DNA of 10,933 nt from a virus (taxonomy: Duplodnaviria; Heunggongvirae; Uroviricota; Caudoviricetes): the IMG/VR virus record IMGVR_UViG_2634166457_000009; one strand, written 5' to 3'. A model generated the notes under the pieces. That model saw only the letters and a program-made list of their open reading frames with translations. It was not told the origin of the DNA and did not search any database. Shown piece by piece: positions 3,995-10,933 of this stretch (its first letter is position 1; each line of letters opens with the position of its first letter). Made by a program: the position numbers and the translations under genes.

Positions 3995-4070
3995 TGGCTC
4001 CTCTGACTGGACTCGAACCAGTGACATACGGATTAACAGTCCGCCGTTCTACCGACTGAACTACAGAGGA
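3995..4070 (-). tRNA. asnT: tRNA-Asn (anticodon GUU), 76 nt including CCA
   Basis: Reverse complement reads TCCTCTGTAGTTCAGTCGGTAGAACGGCGGACTGTTAATCCGTATGTCACTGGTTCGAGTCCAGTCAGAGGAGCCA, matching E. coli tRNA-Asn; anticodon loop CU-GUU-AA. Symbol asnT assigned from its position between yeeJ and mtfA. Confidence 0.95.
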
Positions 4071-4170: not shown

Positions 4171-4968
4171 TTAATGAACATTCGTCGCCGAAAACGAGTC
4201 TGTATCATTAGCGTGATGCAGTCTCTGCAAAGGATCTTGTTGATAAAATTGGCAGAAACGTTGCCACAATGAAGGGAAACGAGGAGCAAAAAGTTCTGGG
4301 GCGCTAAAGAAATATTCAGAAAGTACGGCAAAACATTCAGCAGGATCACTGGCAGCATAAGCATCAATGCTCGCCGCATTCTCGCCAACCAATTCGATTT
4401 CTTCCTGAATGTTGTTCATTGCAGCATGAAGATCGTGTTCCCAGCCAGCAACCTCACGCAACGGAATAAAGGGAACTCCGCTGGCGCGATCGCCGTTACG
4501 GGTGTCCAGCTTATGAGCGACTTCATGAATAATCAGGTTAAAACCAGAAGCATCAAAAGAATCTTGTATATCCAACCAGTTCAAAACGATAGGCCCTTGC
4601 TGCCAGCTCTGACCTGACTGAACAATACGTTGGTTATGCACCAGACCGATATCGTCTTCCCATTCATCATCGACCACAAATGGCGCAGGATAAATTAAGA
4701 CTTCATGAAAACCATCCAGCCATTCCAGTCCTAACTCCAGAACGGGCAGGCAAAATAGAAGTGCTATCCGGCAGCTTCTTAATGAATCCAGTTCAAAGCC
4801 CTGTAAAGGAACAAGCCGCTTTTGCTGTAAAAAACGTTCGGCAAGAGTGACTAATTTGCTTTGTTCCTGTTCCGTCAGACACGTTAAAAGGGGGATCGAT
4901 AGTGCTTCCTGCCAGGGAAGGGCAGTTTGATGTGCTGATTCTTGTACTTTCCAGGGCCACTTAATCAT
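4171..4968 (-). CDS. mtfA: MtfA (Mlc titration factor A), zinc-dependent peptidase, 265 aa
   Basis: ORF track 4171..5007 begins at GTG; the annotated-like start is ATG at 4968 ([14 protein letters not shown]...). HEVAHKLD HExxH metalloprotease motif present. Located between asnT and serU as in E. coli. Confidence 0.9.
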
Positions 4969-5061
4969 CGTTTTGCTCGCAAACTCGTCACTTGAACAAA
5001 ATTGCACGGACAGGGACTGTTAAAATGCCAAATTTCCTGGCATCATGGCAACCATCTGAAC

Positions 5062-5151
5062 GGAGAGATGCCGGAGCGGCTGAACGGACCGGTCTCGAAA
5101 ACCGGAGTGGGGGCAACTCCACCGGGGGTTCAAATCCCCCTCTCTCCGCCA
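5062..5151 (+). tRNA. serU: tRNA-Ser (anticodon CGA), 90 nt with long variable arm and encoded CCA
   Basis: GGAGAGATGCCGGAGCGGCTGAACGGACCGGTCTCGAAAACCGGAGTGGGGGCAACTCCACCGGGGGTTCAAATCCCCCTCTCTCCGCCA; anticodon loop CU-CGA-AA; class II tRNA. The two plus-strand ORFs overlapping it (4992..5177, 5002..5268) are artefacts. Confidence 0.95.
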
Positions 5152-5196: not shown

Positions 5197-5227
5197 CTTG
5201 GAATTACTTGGAATATTTTCTTGGAAT
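5197..5227. repeat. Three direct repeats of CTTGGAAT (starts 5197, 5207, 5220), candidate arm-type integrase binding sites of attL
   Basis: aCTTGGAATtaCTTGGAATattttCTTGGAATatt; spacing 10 and 13 bp, immediately prophage-side of the tRNA-Ser 3' end and overlapping the last codons and stop of int. Lambda attP/attL P' arms carry tandem arm-type sites in this position. Confidence 0.4.
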
Positions 5228-6229
5228 ATTATCAGGTAACGGGACATCAAGTGTTGGTGAAACTTTAACCTTTCTGTCATAGATTAGCACTTGCCCTTCG
5301 GTTTTGTGACCAGAGAAAAGTTGCTTATCCCGGCTGCTTCCTTCATAGTCTGAAATTCCTTTCGACTTCAGATCATGAAAGGTGAAGTCGGTTAAAATAC
5401 CTGAAATTTTTCCAGCACGATTTCTTGCTTCTACCCACATTTCGTTAAAGCCTTTGTACATATATCGGTTGCCGTATTGATTGCTGATCACATAGGCAGA
5501 TTTTGGTAACTGTTTTGCTTTTTCGATCGCTGCCTGTAATCGTGGACTCCATGCTTTTATCTGTTTTTTTCCGGTTTTCCCTTGCTGGATGAATATCCCG
5601 TCGTTTCCAATCTGTTCCCATTTCAGCGATAACACATCGGAAACCCTCGCTGCACACAGATAGGCAATTTCCATTGCGATAAAAACAGGAAGAGGCGCAA
5701 CGCTTAATACTGCCTGGTATTCCTTGTCGGTTATATATCGTTCGCGGTTTTTGGCCTTGAATTTACTTACACCTGCACATGGGTTAGCCTTCACGTACCC
5801 TCGCTCATATCCCCAACTGTAAACACGGGACATGCTGCTTTTTTCATGGTTGGCTTGCGTTTTGCTCTGTTCCCCTCTTTTGTCCATGTATCGACGGATG
5901 TGTTCTGGTTTTATGGAATCCGCCGGTACCTTACCGAATACGGCAAGCAACTTTTTCTGATGTTGCAGATAATCTTTTTGTGTTCTTGGACTGAGGTCAC
6001 TGTAACAGGCGCTGGTGAGGAATTTTTCCCACAATCGACCGAATGTCATTGCACGATCACGATTATTTACAGTTTCCTCATACTTTTTCCATAAAGCAGC
6101 TAAACCATCCTTGATGGCGGTTAGTGTTACAGATTCTCTGGATGTTGGTTTCCATACATAACTATATTTATTTGGGTATACATTTGGAGGTAATTTTTCG
6201 TGTTCAGGATTTTTCCTTCGTCTTCCCAT
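5204..6229 (-). CDS. int: Lambda-family tyrosine integrase (site-specific recombinase), 341 aa
   Basis: N-terminus MGRRRKNPEHEKLPPNVY resembles the lambda Int arm-binding domain; catalytic-domain landmarks AARVSDVLSLKW (Arg), QQGKTGKK (Lys), FHDLK, SGHKTEG, VLIYDRK (Tyr). ATG at 6229..6227 overlaps the upstream gene's TGA by 1 nt. Gene abuts a tRNA 3' end. Confidence 0.95.
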   Translation of the reverse strand: MGRRRKNPEHEKLPPNVYPNKYSYVWKPTSRESVTLTAIKDGLAALWKKYEETVNNRDRAMTFGRLWEKFLTSACYSDLSPRTQKDYLQHQKKLLAVFGKVPADSIKPEHIRRYMDKRGEQSKTQANHEKSSMSRVYSWGYERGYVKANPCAGVSKFKAKNRERYITDKEYQAVLSVAPLPVFIAMEIAYLCAARVSDVLSLKWEQIGNDGIFIQQGKTGKKQIKAWSPRLQAAIEKAKQLPKSAYVISNQYGNRYMYKGFNEMWVEARNRAGKISGILTDFTFHDLKSKGISDYEGSSRDKQLFSGHKTEGQVLIYDRKVKVSPTLDVPLPDNIPRKYSK

Positions 6230-6490: not shown

Positions 6491-8932
6491 TTAAAAATCA
6501 GCCTGACTCGGGATCAGTTTTTGCCAGATAGCTGAAACGTATTTTGCCTGGTAACGAGCGTCATCAAGTGCATTATGGCGCTCACCTTCGAATGGGATAG
6601 CAGTTCTGGCATCGAAGTCTATGGCTTTCCCCAGCTCAACGATTGTGCGTACATCGCGATCGTTGCAGTAGCGCCACGGGCAGGGGATACCCTGTCGTTC
6701 GTATGAACGGCGTAAAATCACGTTGTCGAAGTTGGCCCCATTACCCCAGACCTGAACAAAAAATTCACCGGAGTTTTCGTCGATAAATTCCCGCAATTGC
6801 AGTAGTGCATCATCTAACGGGATTTCATCGGTCATAATGGCAGACTGCGCTTCACGTGATTGCTTCAGCCACCATTTAATGACGTCACGATCAATGACTC
6901 CGCCAGCAGTATCCAGATCGATGGTCTTGCTAAATTCCGGTCCCATATCTCCGGTTTGTGGATCGAAAAATATTGCGCCTATTGAGATAATCGGGGCATC
7001 GGGATTTTTTCCCATGGTTTCAAGGTCGATCATCAGATGAATCCCCGTTCTGCTGGTGGATGTGAGCTTATGATGACCATTCACCTTAATTAAGGGATCT
7101 GTCGACTCGCCAGTTTTATTATCGCTGGCGTGATGCTGATTGCCGCCAGGGTTCTCCTTGTGTGGATGTTCAGCGCCTTCCATTTCCTCCGTATCATTTT
7201 CCTGAACTTCAACCTGATTCTCTTCATCGAATGTTTCCTGGTATGTTGCGTCGCCCATCACCGCGCCACAATCAGGGCAGTTGCCGCCACCGCTCTGACC
7301 GCAGACGGTGCAGACTTTTTCCGGTTCCTGTTGCGCTACTGGTTCGGATTGTTTCGTTTCTGGCTCGTTTTGTAACGCATTTGGGCTGTTTTGTTCCGCT
7401 TTTTGGTCGTTCCGTTCCGATTCATGCTGGTTCTGGTTCACAGAATCGCGAGTCTGGATCCCCTTGACCCATTTCGGATCATTAGGGTCGCTAATCCCCT
7501 CAACAAATTCACCACGCGATACAGCAAGTAACTTATCGGCGTCAGGCTGGCTGATATTGGCTGCCTGCATAATTTTGTTTACTTCGTCAGCGGTGACTTT
7601 TACTTGGTTAGCGGAACTCACCTGCGACTGAGCATCCAGCGACTGCGCGTTCTGGCAATGTTCAGTTGTATCCGGTTCCATTGTTTCAGTTGTTGCCTGT
7701 TCACCTGCCATTGCGTCAGATGGTTGTGGTTTTTCTTCTTCTGTTTCACGCTCAGTAACCACCTCGCGGTTAATTTCTTCCAGGATATCTTTTTCCGGCG
7801 TATGCCGGGCAGCTGTGAGAGTTTCCTTGCTGGGGTTCTCGTGATCTGTTTCCGTCAAATAGGCGTTGATATACCCCTGAAGGCGTCCCGGGTAGTGATA
7901 AAATTCAGGGTGTGCGCTTCGGATAAGTGCAAAAATAGCGGCGCGGGAATAGTCCAGAATACCCGGGGTTGCACGAAGTGCTGCGGACCATTCTTTGAAC
8001 GGACTTTCTTTTTTCAGGACGACTTTTTTTGCGCGACGATAAACGCTGCCCGGAATTTCATAAATATTAAAATCCATCGGAAGTGTGGCTGCTGCAATCT
8101 CCACATCCAGTGTGTCGAGGGTGTGTACTAAATTCGGATTGCGATCGGTTTTGTTCCCACCGCCAGCATTAGCACCGGAAGCCGTGCGGGTGATGCGTGA
8201 AACACGATTTCCTTTCATCCACTCTTTTGTCAGCAGACCCCGATCGGTGTAGTCAGCGCCCAGGTATGCTTCGAAAAAAGCAGTCATCAGTCCCAGGTCT
8301 GAATTACCAGGATTAGGGAAAACTTTGTCCGTGTCACGAACCAGTTTGTGGAGATCGCGAATTTCCAGTGGTTCGAGTTGCGCAGCTTTATTTGAGATGG
8401 CCAGCGCGGTAACGGCGGGAAGTTTTTCATCCTGTGCGTTATGTAATGCGCGCAGTTCGCCCCGCGAAACGTGTGTGATCGGTTTTTCGCTGCCGTGCTG
8501 TGCCAGCCATCGAACAGGCAGAATCTGACCTGAAACCGGCAGGAGCATGTTCTCCTCAATCTCAGTCATGTCTTCGCCGTTGACGTTGGTATTGTCAGTG
8601 CTGGCTGGTTTGTCCTGAACAGAGGGCGAGGGTGCGATAAGTACCATTGTGATACCATCTTCCCCGCCTTTTTCGTATCGGTTGCAGAATTCGGTATCAA
8701 ACACGCCTTCCGGAGGAAGGTCATTCACAACGGGTAAATGGACGCGAACAGGTTTTTTAAAATCCTCTTCGTCAAATCCGGCATCGTCCATTGCGACAAC
8801 ACCGCGTGATATTGCAACCGATAATTTTTTTGCTGTGCGCCAGTAAAAACCGCCTTTAATCCCAAGACGTTTTCTGACTTTGTCATTTTTGGCTTCGTAA
8901 TATAGTGCAATTTCTTCTTTATCAGCGCTCAT
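6491..8932 (-). CDS. Large prophage exonuclease, 813 aa: RecE-like (exodeoxyribonuclease VIII-type) N-terminal and central region, C4 zinc-ribbon motif, acidic Q/E-rich linker, C-terminal DnaQ-like DEDDh 3'-5' exonuclease domain
   Basis: C-terminal motifs HLMIDLETMG (Exo I), VWGNGANFDNV (Exo II), ERHNALDDARYQAKY (Exo III, DEDDh). CTVCGQSGGGNCPDCG zinc ribbon. Segments such as NTNVNGEDMTEIEENMLLP and SRGEFVEGISDPNDPKWVKGIQTRD resemble Rac RecE as I recall it (not verified). ATG at 8932 with GAGG 9 nt upstream. Confidence 0.85.
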   Translation of the reverse strand: MSADKEEIALYYEAKNDKVRKRLGIKGGFYWRTAKKLSVAISRGVVAMDDAGFDEEDFKKPVRVHLPVVNDLPPEGVFDTEFCNRYEKGGEDGITMVLIAPSPSVQDKPASTDNTNVNGEDMTEIEENMLLPVSGQILPVRWLAQHGSEKPITHVSRGELRALHNAQDEKLPAVTALAISNKAAQLEPLEIRDLHKLVRDTDKVFPNPGNSDLGLMTAFFEAYLGADYTDRGLLTKEWMKGNRVSRITRTASGANAGGGNKTDRNPNLVHTLDTLDVEIAAATLPMDFNIYEIPGSVYRRAKKVVLKKESPFKEWSAALRATPGILDYSRAAIFALIRSAHPEFYHYPGRLQGYINAYLTETDHENPSKETLTAARHTPEKDILEEINREVVTERETEEEKPQPSDAMAGEQATTETMEPDTTEHCQNAQSLDAQSQVSSANQVKVTADEVNKIMQAANISQPDADKLLAVSRGEFVEGISDPNDPKWVKGIQTRDSVNQNQHESERNDQKAEQNSPNALQNEPETKQSEPVAQQEPEKVCTVCGQSGGGNCPDCGAVMGDATYQETFDEENQVEVQENDTEEMEGAEHPHKENPGGNQHHASDNKTGESTDPLIKVNGHHKLTSTSRTGIHLMIDLETMGKNPDAPIISIGAIFFDPQTGDMGPEFSKTIDLDTAGGVIDRDVIKWWLKQSREAQSAIMTDEIPLDDALLQLREFIDENSGEFFVQVWGNGANFDNVILRRSYERQGIPCPWRYCNDRDVRTIVELGKAIDFDARTAIPFEGERHNALDDARYQAKYVSAIWQKLIPSQADF

Positions 8933-9408: not shown

Positions 9409-9966
9409 TCAACGAGTAAATTTAAGTAACTGCTCTACGGTCATATTTTTAATTGCGCCCGGATTTACAAGAGTCCATCCCTGTTTTTCCAGATAAAAGC
9501 GGAAGGTATCCAGGGTGCAGACCATTGCGCCGTCAGGAACGGTTTCAGTGAATTCAACATTGCCGAATTTGTCGAAGTGAACAACCAGAGTGCGTCCATC
9601 TCCCGGAATAATTTTGTCAGCGGGTGGGGTATTATTCTGACGCAGCTCTGCCTCCATGCGGTCGAACTCAGCGATGTAGGCCTCTTTGAATGCAGCGGCT
9701 TTTTTACCAGTGAAGCCCATCACCAGGAAAACGAAGCCGTTTTTGGTGATTTGGAACATTGGGAGTTTGCGTCCGGTTGAGTCGGTGTATTCGCTCGACA
9801 CAAAATTGTGCTCAGTGAATTTTGCTGAACAGTCCAGATTGCGAATTTTATCCAACACTCGTTCGTGGCGTTTGCCAAAGAACTCGGCGATCGCAACAGA
9901 CGTAGTGACAGCGCGACCATTTTCGATGGTTACGTCAGGGTGAGAAAGGACAGGGATAGTAGCCAT
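9409..9966 (-). CDS. rha: Rha-family phage regulatory protein (Phage_pRha domain), 185 aa
   Basis: RAVTTSVAIAEFFGKRHERVLDKIRNLDC...NFVSSEYTDSTGRKLPMFQITKNGFVFLVMGFTGKKAAAFKEAYIAEFDRME matches the conserved Rha core. Start placed at ATG 9966 (MATIPVLSHPD...) with GAGG 8 nt upstream; the track ORF extends to 10260 but that extension contains a terminator-like hairpin. Confidence 0.8.
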   Translation of the reverse strand: MATIPVLSHPDVTIENGRAVTTSVAIAEFFGKRHERVLDKIRNLDCSAKFTEHNFVSSEYTDSTGRKLPMFQITKNGFVFLVMGFTGKKAAAFKEAYIAEFDRMEAELRQNNTPPADKIIPGDGRTLVVHFDKFGNVEFTETVPDGAMVCTLDTFRFYLEKQGWTLVNPGAIKNMTVEQLLKFTR

Positions 9967-10127
9967 GATGGCAGCCTCGTTAGTGAATTTGATTAACTCA
10001 CCACCGGAGGTAGCAATCTCATGGGTGGTGAGACGTACAGGGTTGCTACAACCGGTCACTAACGAACCCGGCCAGTCTTGCGACTGCCCCGCACGCCCCA
10101 CCATAATTTGAATGTGGCTGTGCATTA

Positions 10128-10160
10128 CGCATAAAAAAACCGCCTGAGCGCGGTTATGCG
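10128..10160 (-). terminator. Terminator-like hairpin with U7 tract in the leader upstream of rha
   Basis: Minus strand CGCATAA-CCGC-GCTCAG-GCGG-TTTTTTT-ATGCG: inner CCGC/GCGG stem (extendable by two A-U pairs) followed by seven U; outer arms CGCATAA/TTATGCG can also pair, leaving a 5-U bulge. Short stem, so weak. Confidence 0.3.
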
Positions 10161-10260
10161 CGTTAGTGAACATCGGGGTAGCAATCCCGGCACCCGTTTT
10201 ATGAGGTGCAGGTGCACTATAATTCCACCCGTTCTGGTTTTCAATAGCTACATTCAACAT

Positions 10261-10828
10261 TTTCTCTACCTTTCATCACCGAAGTGAACTTTGTTGATGC
10301 GGTGCCTGGTGCCTCCAGGTGACGTTAACCAGTTAACAATTAACGCCGGATACAGAGAATCCACCCATAACACTGTTTTTGGTTTTAACTGTTCCGCGTG
10401 CGCTTAGCCGCATTCACCGCATCACAAAATTCACTTTAAAAAGGGCGGCAGAGCAGTCACGGAGTAAAACTGATACCGCCAAACGTCACCAGAAAATTGA
10501 TAACAGAGGGCGTTGCAGCGGGGTTGTCACTTAAGCGTATGGTCAACCTGACAACCCGGTGTCCTCAACGGGGAAGGAATAACCACGCCATACTTACCGC
10601 CGCGCCATTTCGCGGAGTGCCACAACCGGAAGCGCACGGTCGACGAAAATTTAACGACAGGCTATCTATGAACCAGCAACCTCGCCGTGCGCTTTCGCGT
10701 TATGCTCTGACTTTTCAGAGAAATATCCTTTCAGTAAACTGTCAGTGCCGGATGTTCACCCGTGTCCGGCGCACGCACTCCACTTCACCCGTGGAGAACT
10801 CCTTAATTACCAACCCTCAGGAGGGTGA
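10261..10828. other. About 570-bp structured, apparently non-coding region between the rha leader and the next plus-strand ORF
   Basis: No ORF with a credible start/RBS on either strand: the 112-codon track ORF 10497..10835 starts at TTG and is Arg/Gln/Pro-rich, and minus-strand ORFs are under 27 codons. Contains a CCTGG/CCAGG hairpin (10305..10319), a GTTAAC tandem array (10324..10344), a GGCGG/CCGCC stem with U-tract on the minus strand (10438..10480) and twin hairpins (10747..10796). Confidence 0.4.
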
Positions 10829-10933
10829 ATGTTAAAATCAACTCTTATTGCTAAATGCCTTTATCAAAATCGCATGGTAAGCAGCATTTCAATAGGCGAG
10901 TCTGCAGTTAAAAGTATTTTCGAAGAGTACTTT
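10829..10933 (+). CDS. 5' end of an unidentified plus-strand gene (first 35 codons; continues beyond the window)
   Basis: AGGAGG at 10819..10824, 4-nt spacer, ATG at 10829; in-frame TGA immediately upstream; MLKSTLIAKCLYQNRMVSSISIGESAVKSIFEEYF open to the window end. Not in the ORF track because it is truncated. Confidence 0.4.
   Translation, partial: MLKSTLIAKCLYQNRMVSSISIGESAVKSIFEEYF

Follow-up and report, generated by a model that had tools for sequence, protein, structure and literature searches.

Twin hairpins antisense to the early-left operon of a Rac/Qin-type prophage: a probable leader masking the ribosome-binding sites of unrelated small accessory genes

What do two small hairpins do when they stand immediately before the ribosome-binding site (RBS) of a short gene that itself runs against the early operon of a prophage? 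We examined this question in a 10,933-nucleotide stretch of DNA of a member of the Caudoviricetes (IMG/VR record IMGVR_UViG_2634166457_000009; called here the window, at its full length), which is a Rac/Qin-type lambdoid prophage with its early-left operon on the minus strand. Because that operon, including the gene for the small RNA (sRNA) DicF, lies on the minus strand, the hairpins and the open reading frame (ORF) that starts after them at 10829 are antisense to it. The initial annotation, made from the letters of the window, had described two hairpins with identical loops and suggested a paired recognition element such as an operator pair, a translational operator or a put/nut-like element; its coordinates for the hairpins, the repeated 10-mer, the AGGAGG and the ATG were all confirmed by reading of the sequence and with a repeat finder. 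The explanation that we favor, with a probability of roughly 0.6, is that the twin hairpins make up the 5' portion of a plus-strand leader of about 85 nt (10747-10831) that masks the RBS of the next small ORF, and we consider it about equally probable that this leader belongs to a self-contained, moron-like accessory cassette inserted antisense in the early-left operon. The parts of the leader are as follows.

10747..10770, plus strand: hairpin A, stem GCCGGA (10747-10752) / TCCGGC (10765-10770), with the 12-nt loop TGTTCACCCGTG
10755..10761, plus strand: TTCACCC in the loop of hairpin A (anti-spacer), complement of 10823-10829
10778..10796, plus strand: hairpin B, stem CTCCAC (10778-10783) / GTGGAG (10791-10796), with the 7-nt loop TTCACCC
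10799..10803, plus strand: CTCCT, anti-Shine-Dalgarno (anti-SD) stretch, complement of AGGAG at 10819-10823
10819..10831, plus strand: RBS, with AGGAGG from 10819, the Shine-Dalgarno sequence (SD) GGAGG at 10820-10824, a spacer and the ATG at 10829-10831
10829..10933, plus strand: start of a 77-amino-acid ORF (PHROG 10348, function unassigned) that runs past the end of the window

The answer begins with a complementarity missed by the initial annotation, which saw only that the loops are identical. The TTCACCC of both loops is the exact complement, as located with the repeat finder, of GGGTGAA (10823-10829) in the interval from the SD to the ATG, with predicted duplex energies against GGGUGAA of -13.2 kcal/mol for loop A and -10.4 kcal/mol for loop B, the loop of hairpin B being in the window allele a second copy of the anti-spacer. 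The 10-mer TTCACCCGTG that includes this heptamer lies at 10755-10764 and 10784-10793, 29 nt apart (sequence reading and repeat finder). With at most one mismatch allowed it occurs three times in the window against 0.73 expected, and 8 of 200 shuffled sequences also reach three, so that the repeat taken alone is no more than mildly unusual. What speaks for a real feature is conservation, folding and covariation.

We compared about 160 related loci, 120 of them gathered from IMG/VR by means of a flanking anchor that excluded the hairpins and the others from genome, phage and metagenome collections; an anchor on DicF matched only 8 genomes, which limited the taxonomic breadth. Alignment of the leaders (by MAFFT for 26 distinct leaders and by a model-based procedure for 28) showed coordinated change between the loop of hairpin A and the RBS spacer. 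The two segments occur in three matched states, TCACCC/GGGTGA, TTACCC/GGGTAA and TTATCC/GGATAA, which are separated by two compensatory double changes in the same register. When the RBS GGAGGGTAAA was scanned for with the loop left unconstrained, every leader found carried TTACCC in the loop of hairpin A, and the third state likewise came from an RBS scan in which the loop was unconstrained. The loop/spacer helix is 97.7-97.9% paired and two of its five pairs are changed on both sides; among the 1,848 possible 5-column helices, only this one (together with its one-column shift) combines at least 95% pairing with at least two covarying pairs. Neither further spacer variants of the RBS (T7 to V, A9 to B) nor a fourth loop state, TCATCC, were found in the viral contigs scanned.

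The remaining helices of the leader gave a similar result, with the exception of the stem of hairpin A. The anti-SD/SD helix is 91% paired in the 28 leaders, with two pairs changed on both sides between the states CUCCU/AGGAG and CUCCAU(U)/(A)AUGGAG, and hairpin B has three to four of its six pairs changed on both sides (stem variants CTCCAC/GTGGAG, CTCCAT/ATGGAG, CCCTAC/GTAGGG and CCCAAC/GTTGGG). In the stem of hairpin A 96-97% of the cells are paired, and the stem is invariant in the 28 leaders and so shows no covariation, the block CCGTGTCCGGCGCAC that follows this stem being invariant or nearly so as well. For the structure as a whole the covariation score was 0.22-0.24 against 0.09 in shuffled alignments, none of 500 shuffles reaching the observed value, and sliding the partner columns lowered whole-structure pairing from about 90% to 33-49%. 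Single loci show how the loop/spacer match varies: one leader has a U-G pair on the plus strand (L015), another keeps partial complementarity with two plus-strand U-G pairs (L152a), a third lacks the 5' arm of hairpin A and retains the match (L147), and a fourth has an A-to-C change in loop A (L031). In a set of non-homologous leaders from Escherichia ruysiae, Shigella and Salmonella (class 4, described below) the design of a hairpin followed by an anti-SD/SD pair is kept with different sequences.

These comparisons bear directly on what had been proposed for the hairpins. That they are part of an element acting in cis and linked to the RBS of the 10829 ORF is upheld by the covariation of loop A and the anti-SD with the spacer and the SD, a tie that holds where an ORF is present and not in the orphan copies of K-12 Qin and the Stx2 phages. 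Maintenance of the stems by compensatory changes, on which the proposal had been staked, is found in hairpin B and not in hairpin A, which is invariant. The motif is conserved in loop A, where it covaries with the spacer; its second copy is present only in some lineages, namely the window type, the commonest CTCACCC type and a locus (L157) in which both loops read CTTACCC and match their own GGGTAA spacer, whereas in other lineages the loop of hairpin B is unrelated or a different hairpin takes its place. Because hairpin B carries the motif in some lineages only, identical twin loops are not a general or conserved property of the element. As regards the partner of the loops, for which protein and RNA had both been entertained, the partner appears to be the SD-ATG spacer of the mRNA itself and not a protein. 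An operator pair is improbable, as many lineages lack the second motif copy and hairpin B covaries like an RNA helix.

Since all of the helices could form on either strand, asymmetric signals were used to decide which strand is the functional one. The 110-nt region folds on the plus strand with z = -2.79 and on the minus strand with z = 0.03, and in five diverged leaders z ranged from -2.1 to -3.5 in the leader sense and from -0.2 to -2.0 when the sequence was reverse-complemented. In three of these five leaders (L151, L148 and L157) the minimum-energy fold consists of the two hairpins plus the anti-SD/SD helix, the latter helix belonging to the minimum-energy fold in the leaders of class 6; in L027 and in the window, hairpins A and B fold and another or a local stem lies over the SD region. 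Of the single-step variants of hairpin B, at least four leave a G-U pair if read on the plus strand and none does so on the minus strand; the corresponding count for the loop/spacer helix is two against one.

The position of a putative promoter also points to the plus strand.

10735..10740, plus strand: predicted -10 box TAAACT, 6 nt upstream of hairpin A
10712-10717, plus strand: weak -35-like TTTTCA, with a 17-nt spacer to TAAACT

In 8 of 11 families of upstream flanks, or about six of nine once related flanks are pooled, a TAnnnT hexamer has its last base 5-7 nt ahead of hairpin A. Against a background of 0.011 at each position (3.4% expected), the binomial tail is approximately 1e-7 to 1e-10. 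In two loci (L149 and L151) the -10-like box takes the form of an extended -10, TGnTAACAT. From the position of these boxes we infer that the plus-strand transcript starts at about 10747, the first G of hairpin A; because the statistic concerns the -10 box only, and both a promoter scan and the records of K-12 transcript ends were blank, this start is kept conditional in what follows.

If transcription does begin at or beside the first G of hairpin A, this hairpin would fold at the extreme 5' end, within the first 24 nt, and would be followed by hairpin B. The CUCCU after hairpin B would then pair with the Shine-Dalgarno AGGAG, and loop A with the spacer that separates the SD from the AUG, giving a pseudoknot in which loop B could take the same part in the window allele. 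The anti-SD and loop A would together cover about 11 consecutive bases of the RBS, and the downstream small ORF would be translated at a low level or conditionally, any trigger that opened the structure relieving what would be a repression of translation. The 5'-terminal hairpin would probably also stabilize the mRNA.

The genes that follow the leader are highly diverse. The 77-amino-acid ORF of the window is annotated (WP_000920491.1 in RefSeq and a coding sequence in phage Evi) and is present at full length in a near-identical locus (L001); it matches its PHROG at 1e-47 and has no Pfam or PADLOC match, a protein identical to its product is encoded on at least 1,000 contigs, and its 3' end overlaps a convergent gene of 135 amino acids, with no terminator after the ORF. 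The same leader stands upstream of at least 15 unrelated small ORFs, the sequences diverging right after the ATG. These ORFs encode 59-104 amino acids, are mostly polar and fall into many unrelated families, three loci having instead a proline-rich first ORF of 30-36 amino acids. Searches of Pfam, PHROG and PADLOC placed the cargo in PHROG families without function, with only weak GhoS-like and IraP-like matches and one cassette with AbiH. In the three loci with the proline-rich ORF (L148, 5456-6110; L151, 9440-10100; and L152a) the leader is followed by a peptide of the form M[R/L]INQFG...PDGQVPYRP... and then by a protein of 155-156 amino acids without family match, and in L148 the AbiH abortive-infection gene lies further along the cassette. 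Two leader-ORF cassettes stand in tandem in L152 (1785-2546).

Across these loci the element behaves as a portable module with a constant order: -10-like box, hairpin A, hairpin B, anti-SD stretch, SD, spacer and ATG. Exactly one copy is present per locus, always in this position, in 1.19 Mb of loci, the exception being L152 with two; a covariance model (R1) found no extra diverged copies among the 156 loci scanned, and a metagenome scan added one locus. In BLAST searches, a 634-nt stretch (10300-10933) is present in 4,719 of 5,426 complete Escherichia coli genomes and in lambdoid phages, the matching E. coli genomes carrying this region at a median of 2 and up to 10 places each, and, as evidence that the feature is conserved, a 146-nt stretch has matches in 3,549 of the 5,426.

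Six classes of context were distinguished. In class 1, the K-12 Qin type and the commonest, the hairpins lie 40-90 nt past the ydfC stop and about 250 nt before dicF, and no plus-strand ORF follows them. Class 2 is the window type, with at least four unrelated ORFs that all start at a conserved CCCTCAGGAGGGTGAA(A)TG. In class 3, which has at least six different ORFs, the RBS reads AATGGAGGATAAAATG and the loop of hairpin A TTCTTATCCGTG, and a different hairpin occupies the position of hairpin B. Class 4 (E. ruysiae, Shigella, Salmonella) has no hairpin A and carries a hairpin and an anti-SD/SD pair of other sequence, either TCCTTCTT/AAGAAGGA or TCCTTAC/GTAAGGA, before other ORFs. Class 5 consists of orphan copies between convergent genes (L132) or, in Stx2 phages, between co-directional genes (L135 and L136). 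Class 6 comprises Rac-like prophages and integrase-adjacent islands, which have only the leader of about 56-87 nt in common with E. coli phages by BLAST; the RecE-like protein of one of them (L151) is only about 51% identical to its homologues in E. coli and Citrobacter phages. With regard to class 4, we also observed that the different leader occupies the same slot just upstream of DicF in L124 and L127-L129 (E. ruysiae, Shigella and two metagenome-assembled genomes) and in L126 (Salmonella), with a single hairpin ACCAC-N10-GTGGT and its anti-SD/SD pair before other small ORFs. The operon-sense strand of these loci reads CACACAACAC, which is C/A-rich like the target sites of GcvB; no match to AgvB was seen in the window.

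Several observations weigh against the masking of the RBS by the leader, or at least against its being the whole explanation. The element is kept without a downstream ORF in K-12 Qin, which is the commonest class, and in functional Stx2 phages, and masking of an RBS leaves these orphan copies unexplained. In the window itself the nested fold already hides part of the SD in a local stem, ACCCTC/GAGGGT, which spans 10813-10826 in the RBS region according to the repeat finder and leaves bases 10823-10826 of the SD and spacer with an unpaired probability of 0.02-0.2; because the SD is thus partly buried, the pseudoknot may add little. In one type of locus (L021, 11 loci) the RBS GGATGA is accompanied by the loop TCACCC, which makes a C-A mismatch on the plus strand and a G-U pair on the minus strand, and the three covarying states may amount to only two evolutionary events. 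Wobble variants of hairpin A number none on the plus strand and two on the minus strand, both at weak positions (the terminal and the fifth pairs), so that hairpin A alone does not decide the strand. A two-hexamer promoter scan gave no promoter at the predicted site, either in the window or in the four other loci scanned, and the text supplements of two E. coli transcript-end papers list no transcript 5' or 3' end at K-12 positions 1649080-1649139. Finally, the invariance of the hairpin A stem and of the block after it suggests an additional, unexplained sequence-specific role, a further partner being suggested because pairing alone does not explain such invariance.

With respect to the orphans, the copy in K-12 has its terminal pair broken and its loop changed, and in two loci (L004 and L059) a 29-bp deletion, the counterpart of 10755-10793, fuses hairpins A and B, having evidently arisen by recombination between the two 10-nt direct repeats. 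Because of this decay the orphans may be remnants of cassettes. Alternatively they may serve a function of their own, either opposing the toxic dicF-dicB-kil genes through antisense or convergent transcription or working in trans.

Among the other explanations, the hairpins might act in the RNA of the minus-strand operon, as stem-loops between cistrons in the long untranslated stretch that precedes DicF, where they could protect the 3' end that Rho termination or RNase E cleavage leaves on the upstream ydfABC-type mRNA, or form part of the DicF precursor; we regard this as unlikely. Minus is indeed the known direction of the dicBF operon, and in K-12 Qin, L132-L134 and the Stx2 phages the element lies just past the last upstream gene with no plus-strand ORF beside it. 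A 400-nt operon-sense region folds with z = -3.7, its predicted long-range helices joining the hairpin region to the 5' edge of DicF (10492-10504 with 10806-10818) and to 10612-10620 (with 10775-10783). Only on this strand, moreover, do the L021-type RBS variant and the two stem variants of hairpin A form G-U pairs. Yet the second of those helices, the strongest and of 9 bp, is lost in K-12, which has GCAACCC in place of GCACTCC, and the partners that are conserved and covary are the SD and spacer of a plus-strand gene. The reverse complement was also less structured in all five leaders tested, the wobbles of hairpin B favor the plus strand by at least four to none, the -10-like box keeps a fixed plus-strand distance to hairpin A, and no U-tract is present. 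A minus-strand reading frame of 10 codons (10761-10793), with AAGGAG 10 nt earlier, a GTG in the complement of loop B and a TGA in that of loop A, was considered separately and rejected: its stop is lost in K-12, and the frame is absent in classes 3 and 6 and in the Stx phages.

A bolder version of the leader, which we hold to be just as doubtful, makes it a conditional switch: a portable module that would silence accessory and defense cassettes until a signal opens the pseudoknot. The cassettes so controlled would include the AbiH-containing operon, those with IraP-like and GhoS-like proteins and many uncharacterized ones. Candidate signals would be an RNA or a protein made by an infecting phage, the binding of some host factor to the invariant hairpin A and CCGUGUCCGGCGCAC block, or processing at the 5' end, and the orphans of K-12 Qin and the Stx phages would act in trans on matching RBSs in other prophages.

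The element could also be a site in DNA, GCCGGA-N12-TCCGGC with the flanking GCGCACG serving as an operator or other protein site at +1 to +30 of the cassette promoter, or as a conserved anchor of homologous recombination for the exchange of cassettes. This would suit a hairpin A stem that never covaries and a 15-nt block that is invariant across otherwise unrelated loci, as well as the breakpoints of between-class homology at the edges of, or inside, the hairpins and the 29-bp deletion by recombination between the 10-mers in L004 and L059. A second perfect palindrome, CTCTGA-N4-TCAGAG at 10705-10720, overlaps the predicted plus-strand -35 and has the compensatory form CCCTGA...TCAGGG in other loci; this palindrome may serve as an operator or fold into a small hairpin of the operon-sense RNA. 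A DNA site nevertheless predicts neither the antiparallel covariation of the loop with a spacer 60 nt away nor the RNA-type covariation of hairpin B and of the anti-SD/SD helix. Its half-site centers would be 18 bp apart, a spacing unusual for a dimeric operator, and because the element spans prophages of differing immunity regions (RacR, DicA, LexA-like and Stx-phage types) a phage-specific repressor is unlikely to be its ligand. Taken together, we judge the DNA-level explanation improbable.

We give equally little credence to the promoter and hairpins making an RNA of their own, either through convergent transcription that would dampen toxic dicF-dicB-kil read-through or as an RNA similar to C4 or CI whose loops would silence matching RBSs on cassettes of prophages that are co-resident or incoming. 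In its favor, orphans that carry the -10-like box and both hairpins and no ORF persist in K-12 Qin and functional Stx2 phages, and the 634-nt region occupies several places in many a single E. coli genome (median of 2). In three alleles, namely that of the window, the commonest one and L157, the two loops also carry one and the same anti-RBS sequence, which recalls the two target-complementary loops of P1 C4 RNA. Against it, there is no terminator or other defined 3' end past hairpin B, the hairpins have no Rfam match although a genuine C4 RNA was detected elsewhere in the window, the orphans decay in the manner described above for K-12 and the deletion variants, and the loops of hairpin B are often not complementary to the RBS.

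Other known types of element were rejected as well. The put/nut-like element that had been suggested shares with lambda nut (boxA and a 5-bp boxB with a pentaloop) and HK022 put, the latter consisting of two adjacent stem-loops of about 30 nt each, the presence of small hairpins in the early region of a lambdoid phage where antitermination RNAs act; the hairpins here are on the wrong strand, since they run against the early operon, lie over 1 kb away from its promoters instead of just downstream and, in the operon sense, come after ydfA-C-type genes, no boxA-like CGCTCTT is found in 10700-10830, the stem sizes and loops are unlike boxB or put, and the pairing partners are the SD and spacer. 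An intrinsic terminator, already discounted in the initial annotation for want of a U-tract, remains excluded, with no T run after either hairpin and no terminator-like site on either strand in 10200-10933. The first nine nucleotides, TGCCGGATG, resemble the consensus of repetitive extragenic palindromic (REP) sequences, imperfect palindromes of about 35 nt with a conserved GTAG that occur in many copies per chromosome, often clustered; a REP sequence or bacterial interspersed mosaic element is rejected by a stem of only 6 bp, the lack of GTAG and the single copy per locus at a fixed position. By sequence criteria an RNA thermometer of the fourU or ROSE (repression of heat shock gene expression) type, in which non-canonical pairs or a U4 stretch weaken the SD pairing so that it melts at 37-42 C, is rejected as well, the anti-SD CUCC(U/A) being Watson-Crick only, without a U4 stretch, in a helix that covaries as standard pairs. 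A type I toxin-antitoxin system, with its small hydrophobic toxin and an antisense sRNA gene overlapping or next to it, does not fit ORFs that are mostly polar and of many unrelated families, with no sRNA family overlapping them.

What class of regulator does a masking leader of this kind then belong to? Rfam gave nothing at the hairpins over the whole window (E <= 1) and only a spurious small nucleolar RNA over 10495-10870 (E <= 10), and no description of the element was found in the literature searched (dicF, ydfC, antisense and anti-sRNA topics). We class the leader as an undescribed instance of the RBS-occluding mRNA leaders, since the upstream CUCCU complements the SD AGGAG and this complementarity is kept by compensatory change; it is unusual in that the occlusion is in two parts and in that one portable leader is shared by unrelated genes.

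The closest phage parallels are the C4 RNA of P1/P7 immI (RF01695), which acts on the icd/ant mRNA, and the CI RNA of P4 (RF03163), RNAs of the C4/CI type (Rfam clan CL00128) in which co-transcribed upstream loops block a downstream RBS and with it the translation of an accessory or antirepressor operon. As in these systems, an upstream loop is complementary to the RBS on the same transcript (here TTCACCC against GGGTGAA), and the setting is shared too, a genuine C4/isrK module lying 500 nt from the hairpins in the same window. Unlike C4, the stretch 10495-10870 has no match to the C4 or c4-a1b1 covariance models even at E <= 10, and it forms simple hairpins with one target site and a separate linear anti-SD in place of a cloverleaf-like processed RNA; the downstream genes are variable small ORFs and not icd/ant, and, as far as the letters can tell, there is no sign of RNase P processing or action in trans.

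Short leaders that keep an RBS paired by default are found in IS200 tnpA, in the fold-back inhibition of IS10 and in the 5' untranslated regions (UTRs) of hok, tisB and zorO. The present leader resembles them in having an upstream hairpin, then an RBS-occluding helix, before a mobile gene, and differs from all of them in that the occlusion is divided between a linear anti-SD and a hairpin loop forming a predicted pseudoknot. It differs further from the type I toxin leaders in its cargo, many unrelated genes whose products are not hydrophobic toxins, and in that no overlapping antisense sRNA gene was identified. In the ompA 5' UTR a hairpin at the very 5' end protects E. coli mRNA from 5'-end-dependent decay; hairpin A likewise stands at the first transcribed base, which is only predicted, but its loop has a covarying RBS partner that a stabilizer does not need. 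The cassette as a whole recalls the phage morons, which are promoter-gene-terminator cassettes between conserved phage genes, in being autonomous, opposite to the surrounding operon and at a hotspot with many alternative cargo genes, although here the ORF has no terminator after it. In the literature searched we found no moron described as having a common structured leader whose pairing with the RBS covaries.

Should the masking leader prove real, thousands of prophages of E. coli, Shigella and their relatives would have in common a single compact promoter-leader unit, which would govern the expression of the small accessory genes in a hypervariable slot next to DicF. The genes of this slot are almost all uncharacterized, and at least one cassette includes the defense gene AbiH. 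A mutable RNA structure would then offer a handle on the timing of gene expression in the lysogen, on induction and on superinfection, a covariance model would help to annotate such cassettes, and the leader would be a simple and testable case of two-part RBS occlusion by an anti-SD and a hairpin-loop pseudoknot. Part of what is called the "long untranslated region" of K-12 dicBF upstream of dicF appears to be a cassette remnant on the opposite strand.

The genomic setting of the cassette in the window includes three RNA genes on the minus strand.

10443..10494, minus strand: DicF sRNA (Rfam RF00039, 76.7 bits)
10133-10209, minus strand: isrK (Rfam, 64 bits)
10021-10108, minus strand: C4 RNA (Rfam, 77.5 bits)

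In annotated relatives the minus-strand operon runs from a repressor through ydfA, ydfB, ydfC, the 135-amino-acid gene, DicF, a dicB remnant and kil to an exonuclease, and a plus-strand hypothetical gene of 77 amino acids is annotated with its start at the equivalent of 10829; in K-12 Qin the arrangement relative to DicF is the same. After DicF, the minus-strand region 10290-10431 has a partial STnc100/PasD-like match of 38 bits, under the gathering score, followed by a truncated dicB remnant according to the annotation of the near-identical locus L001. An immI-like module at 10021-10260 on the minus strand is made up of C4, isrK, a weak a1b1 match and a promoter-like site (10244-10216), elements that overlap or precede the start of an ORF of 283 amino acids of the Ash/Rha family (9409-10260); this layout resembles that of P1 c4-icd-ant and of Salmonella isrK-anrP.

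At the other end of the window, a tRNA-Asn gene (3995-4070, minus strand) and a gene for an MtfA-like peptidase (4171-5007, minus strand) are followed by a tRNA-Ser(CGA) gene (5062-5151, plus strand) and a phage integrase gene (5204-6229, minus strand), where the end of the prophage and its probable attachment site at the tRNA-Ser gene appear to lie. Between the integrase and the Ash/Rha-family ORF, 6491-8932 on the minus strand encodes an 813-amino-acid protein that combines the N-terminal region of exonuclease VIII (RecE) with a C-terminal Rv2179c-like 3'-5' exoribonuclease domain, a fusion that is also found in L151.

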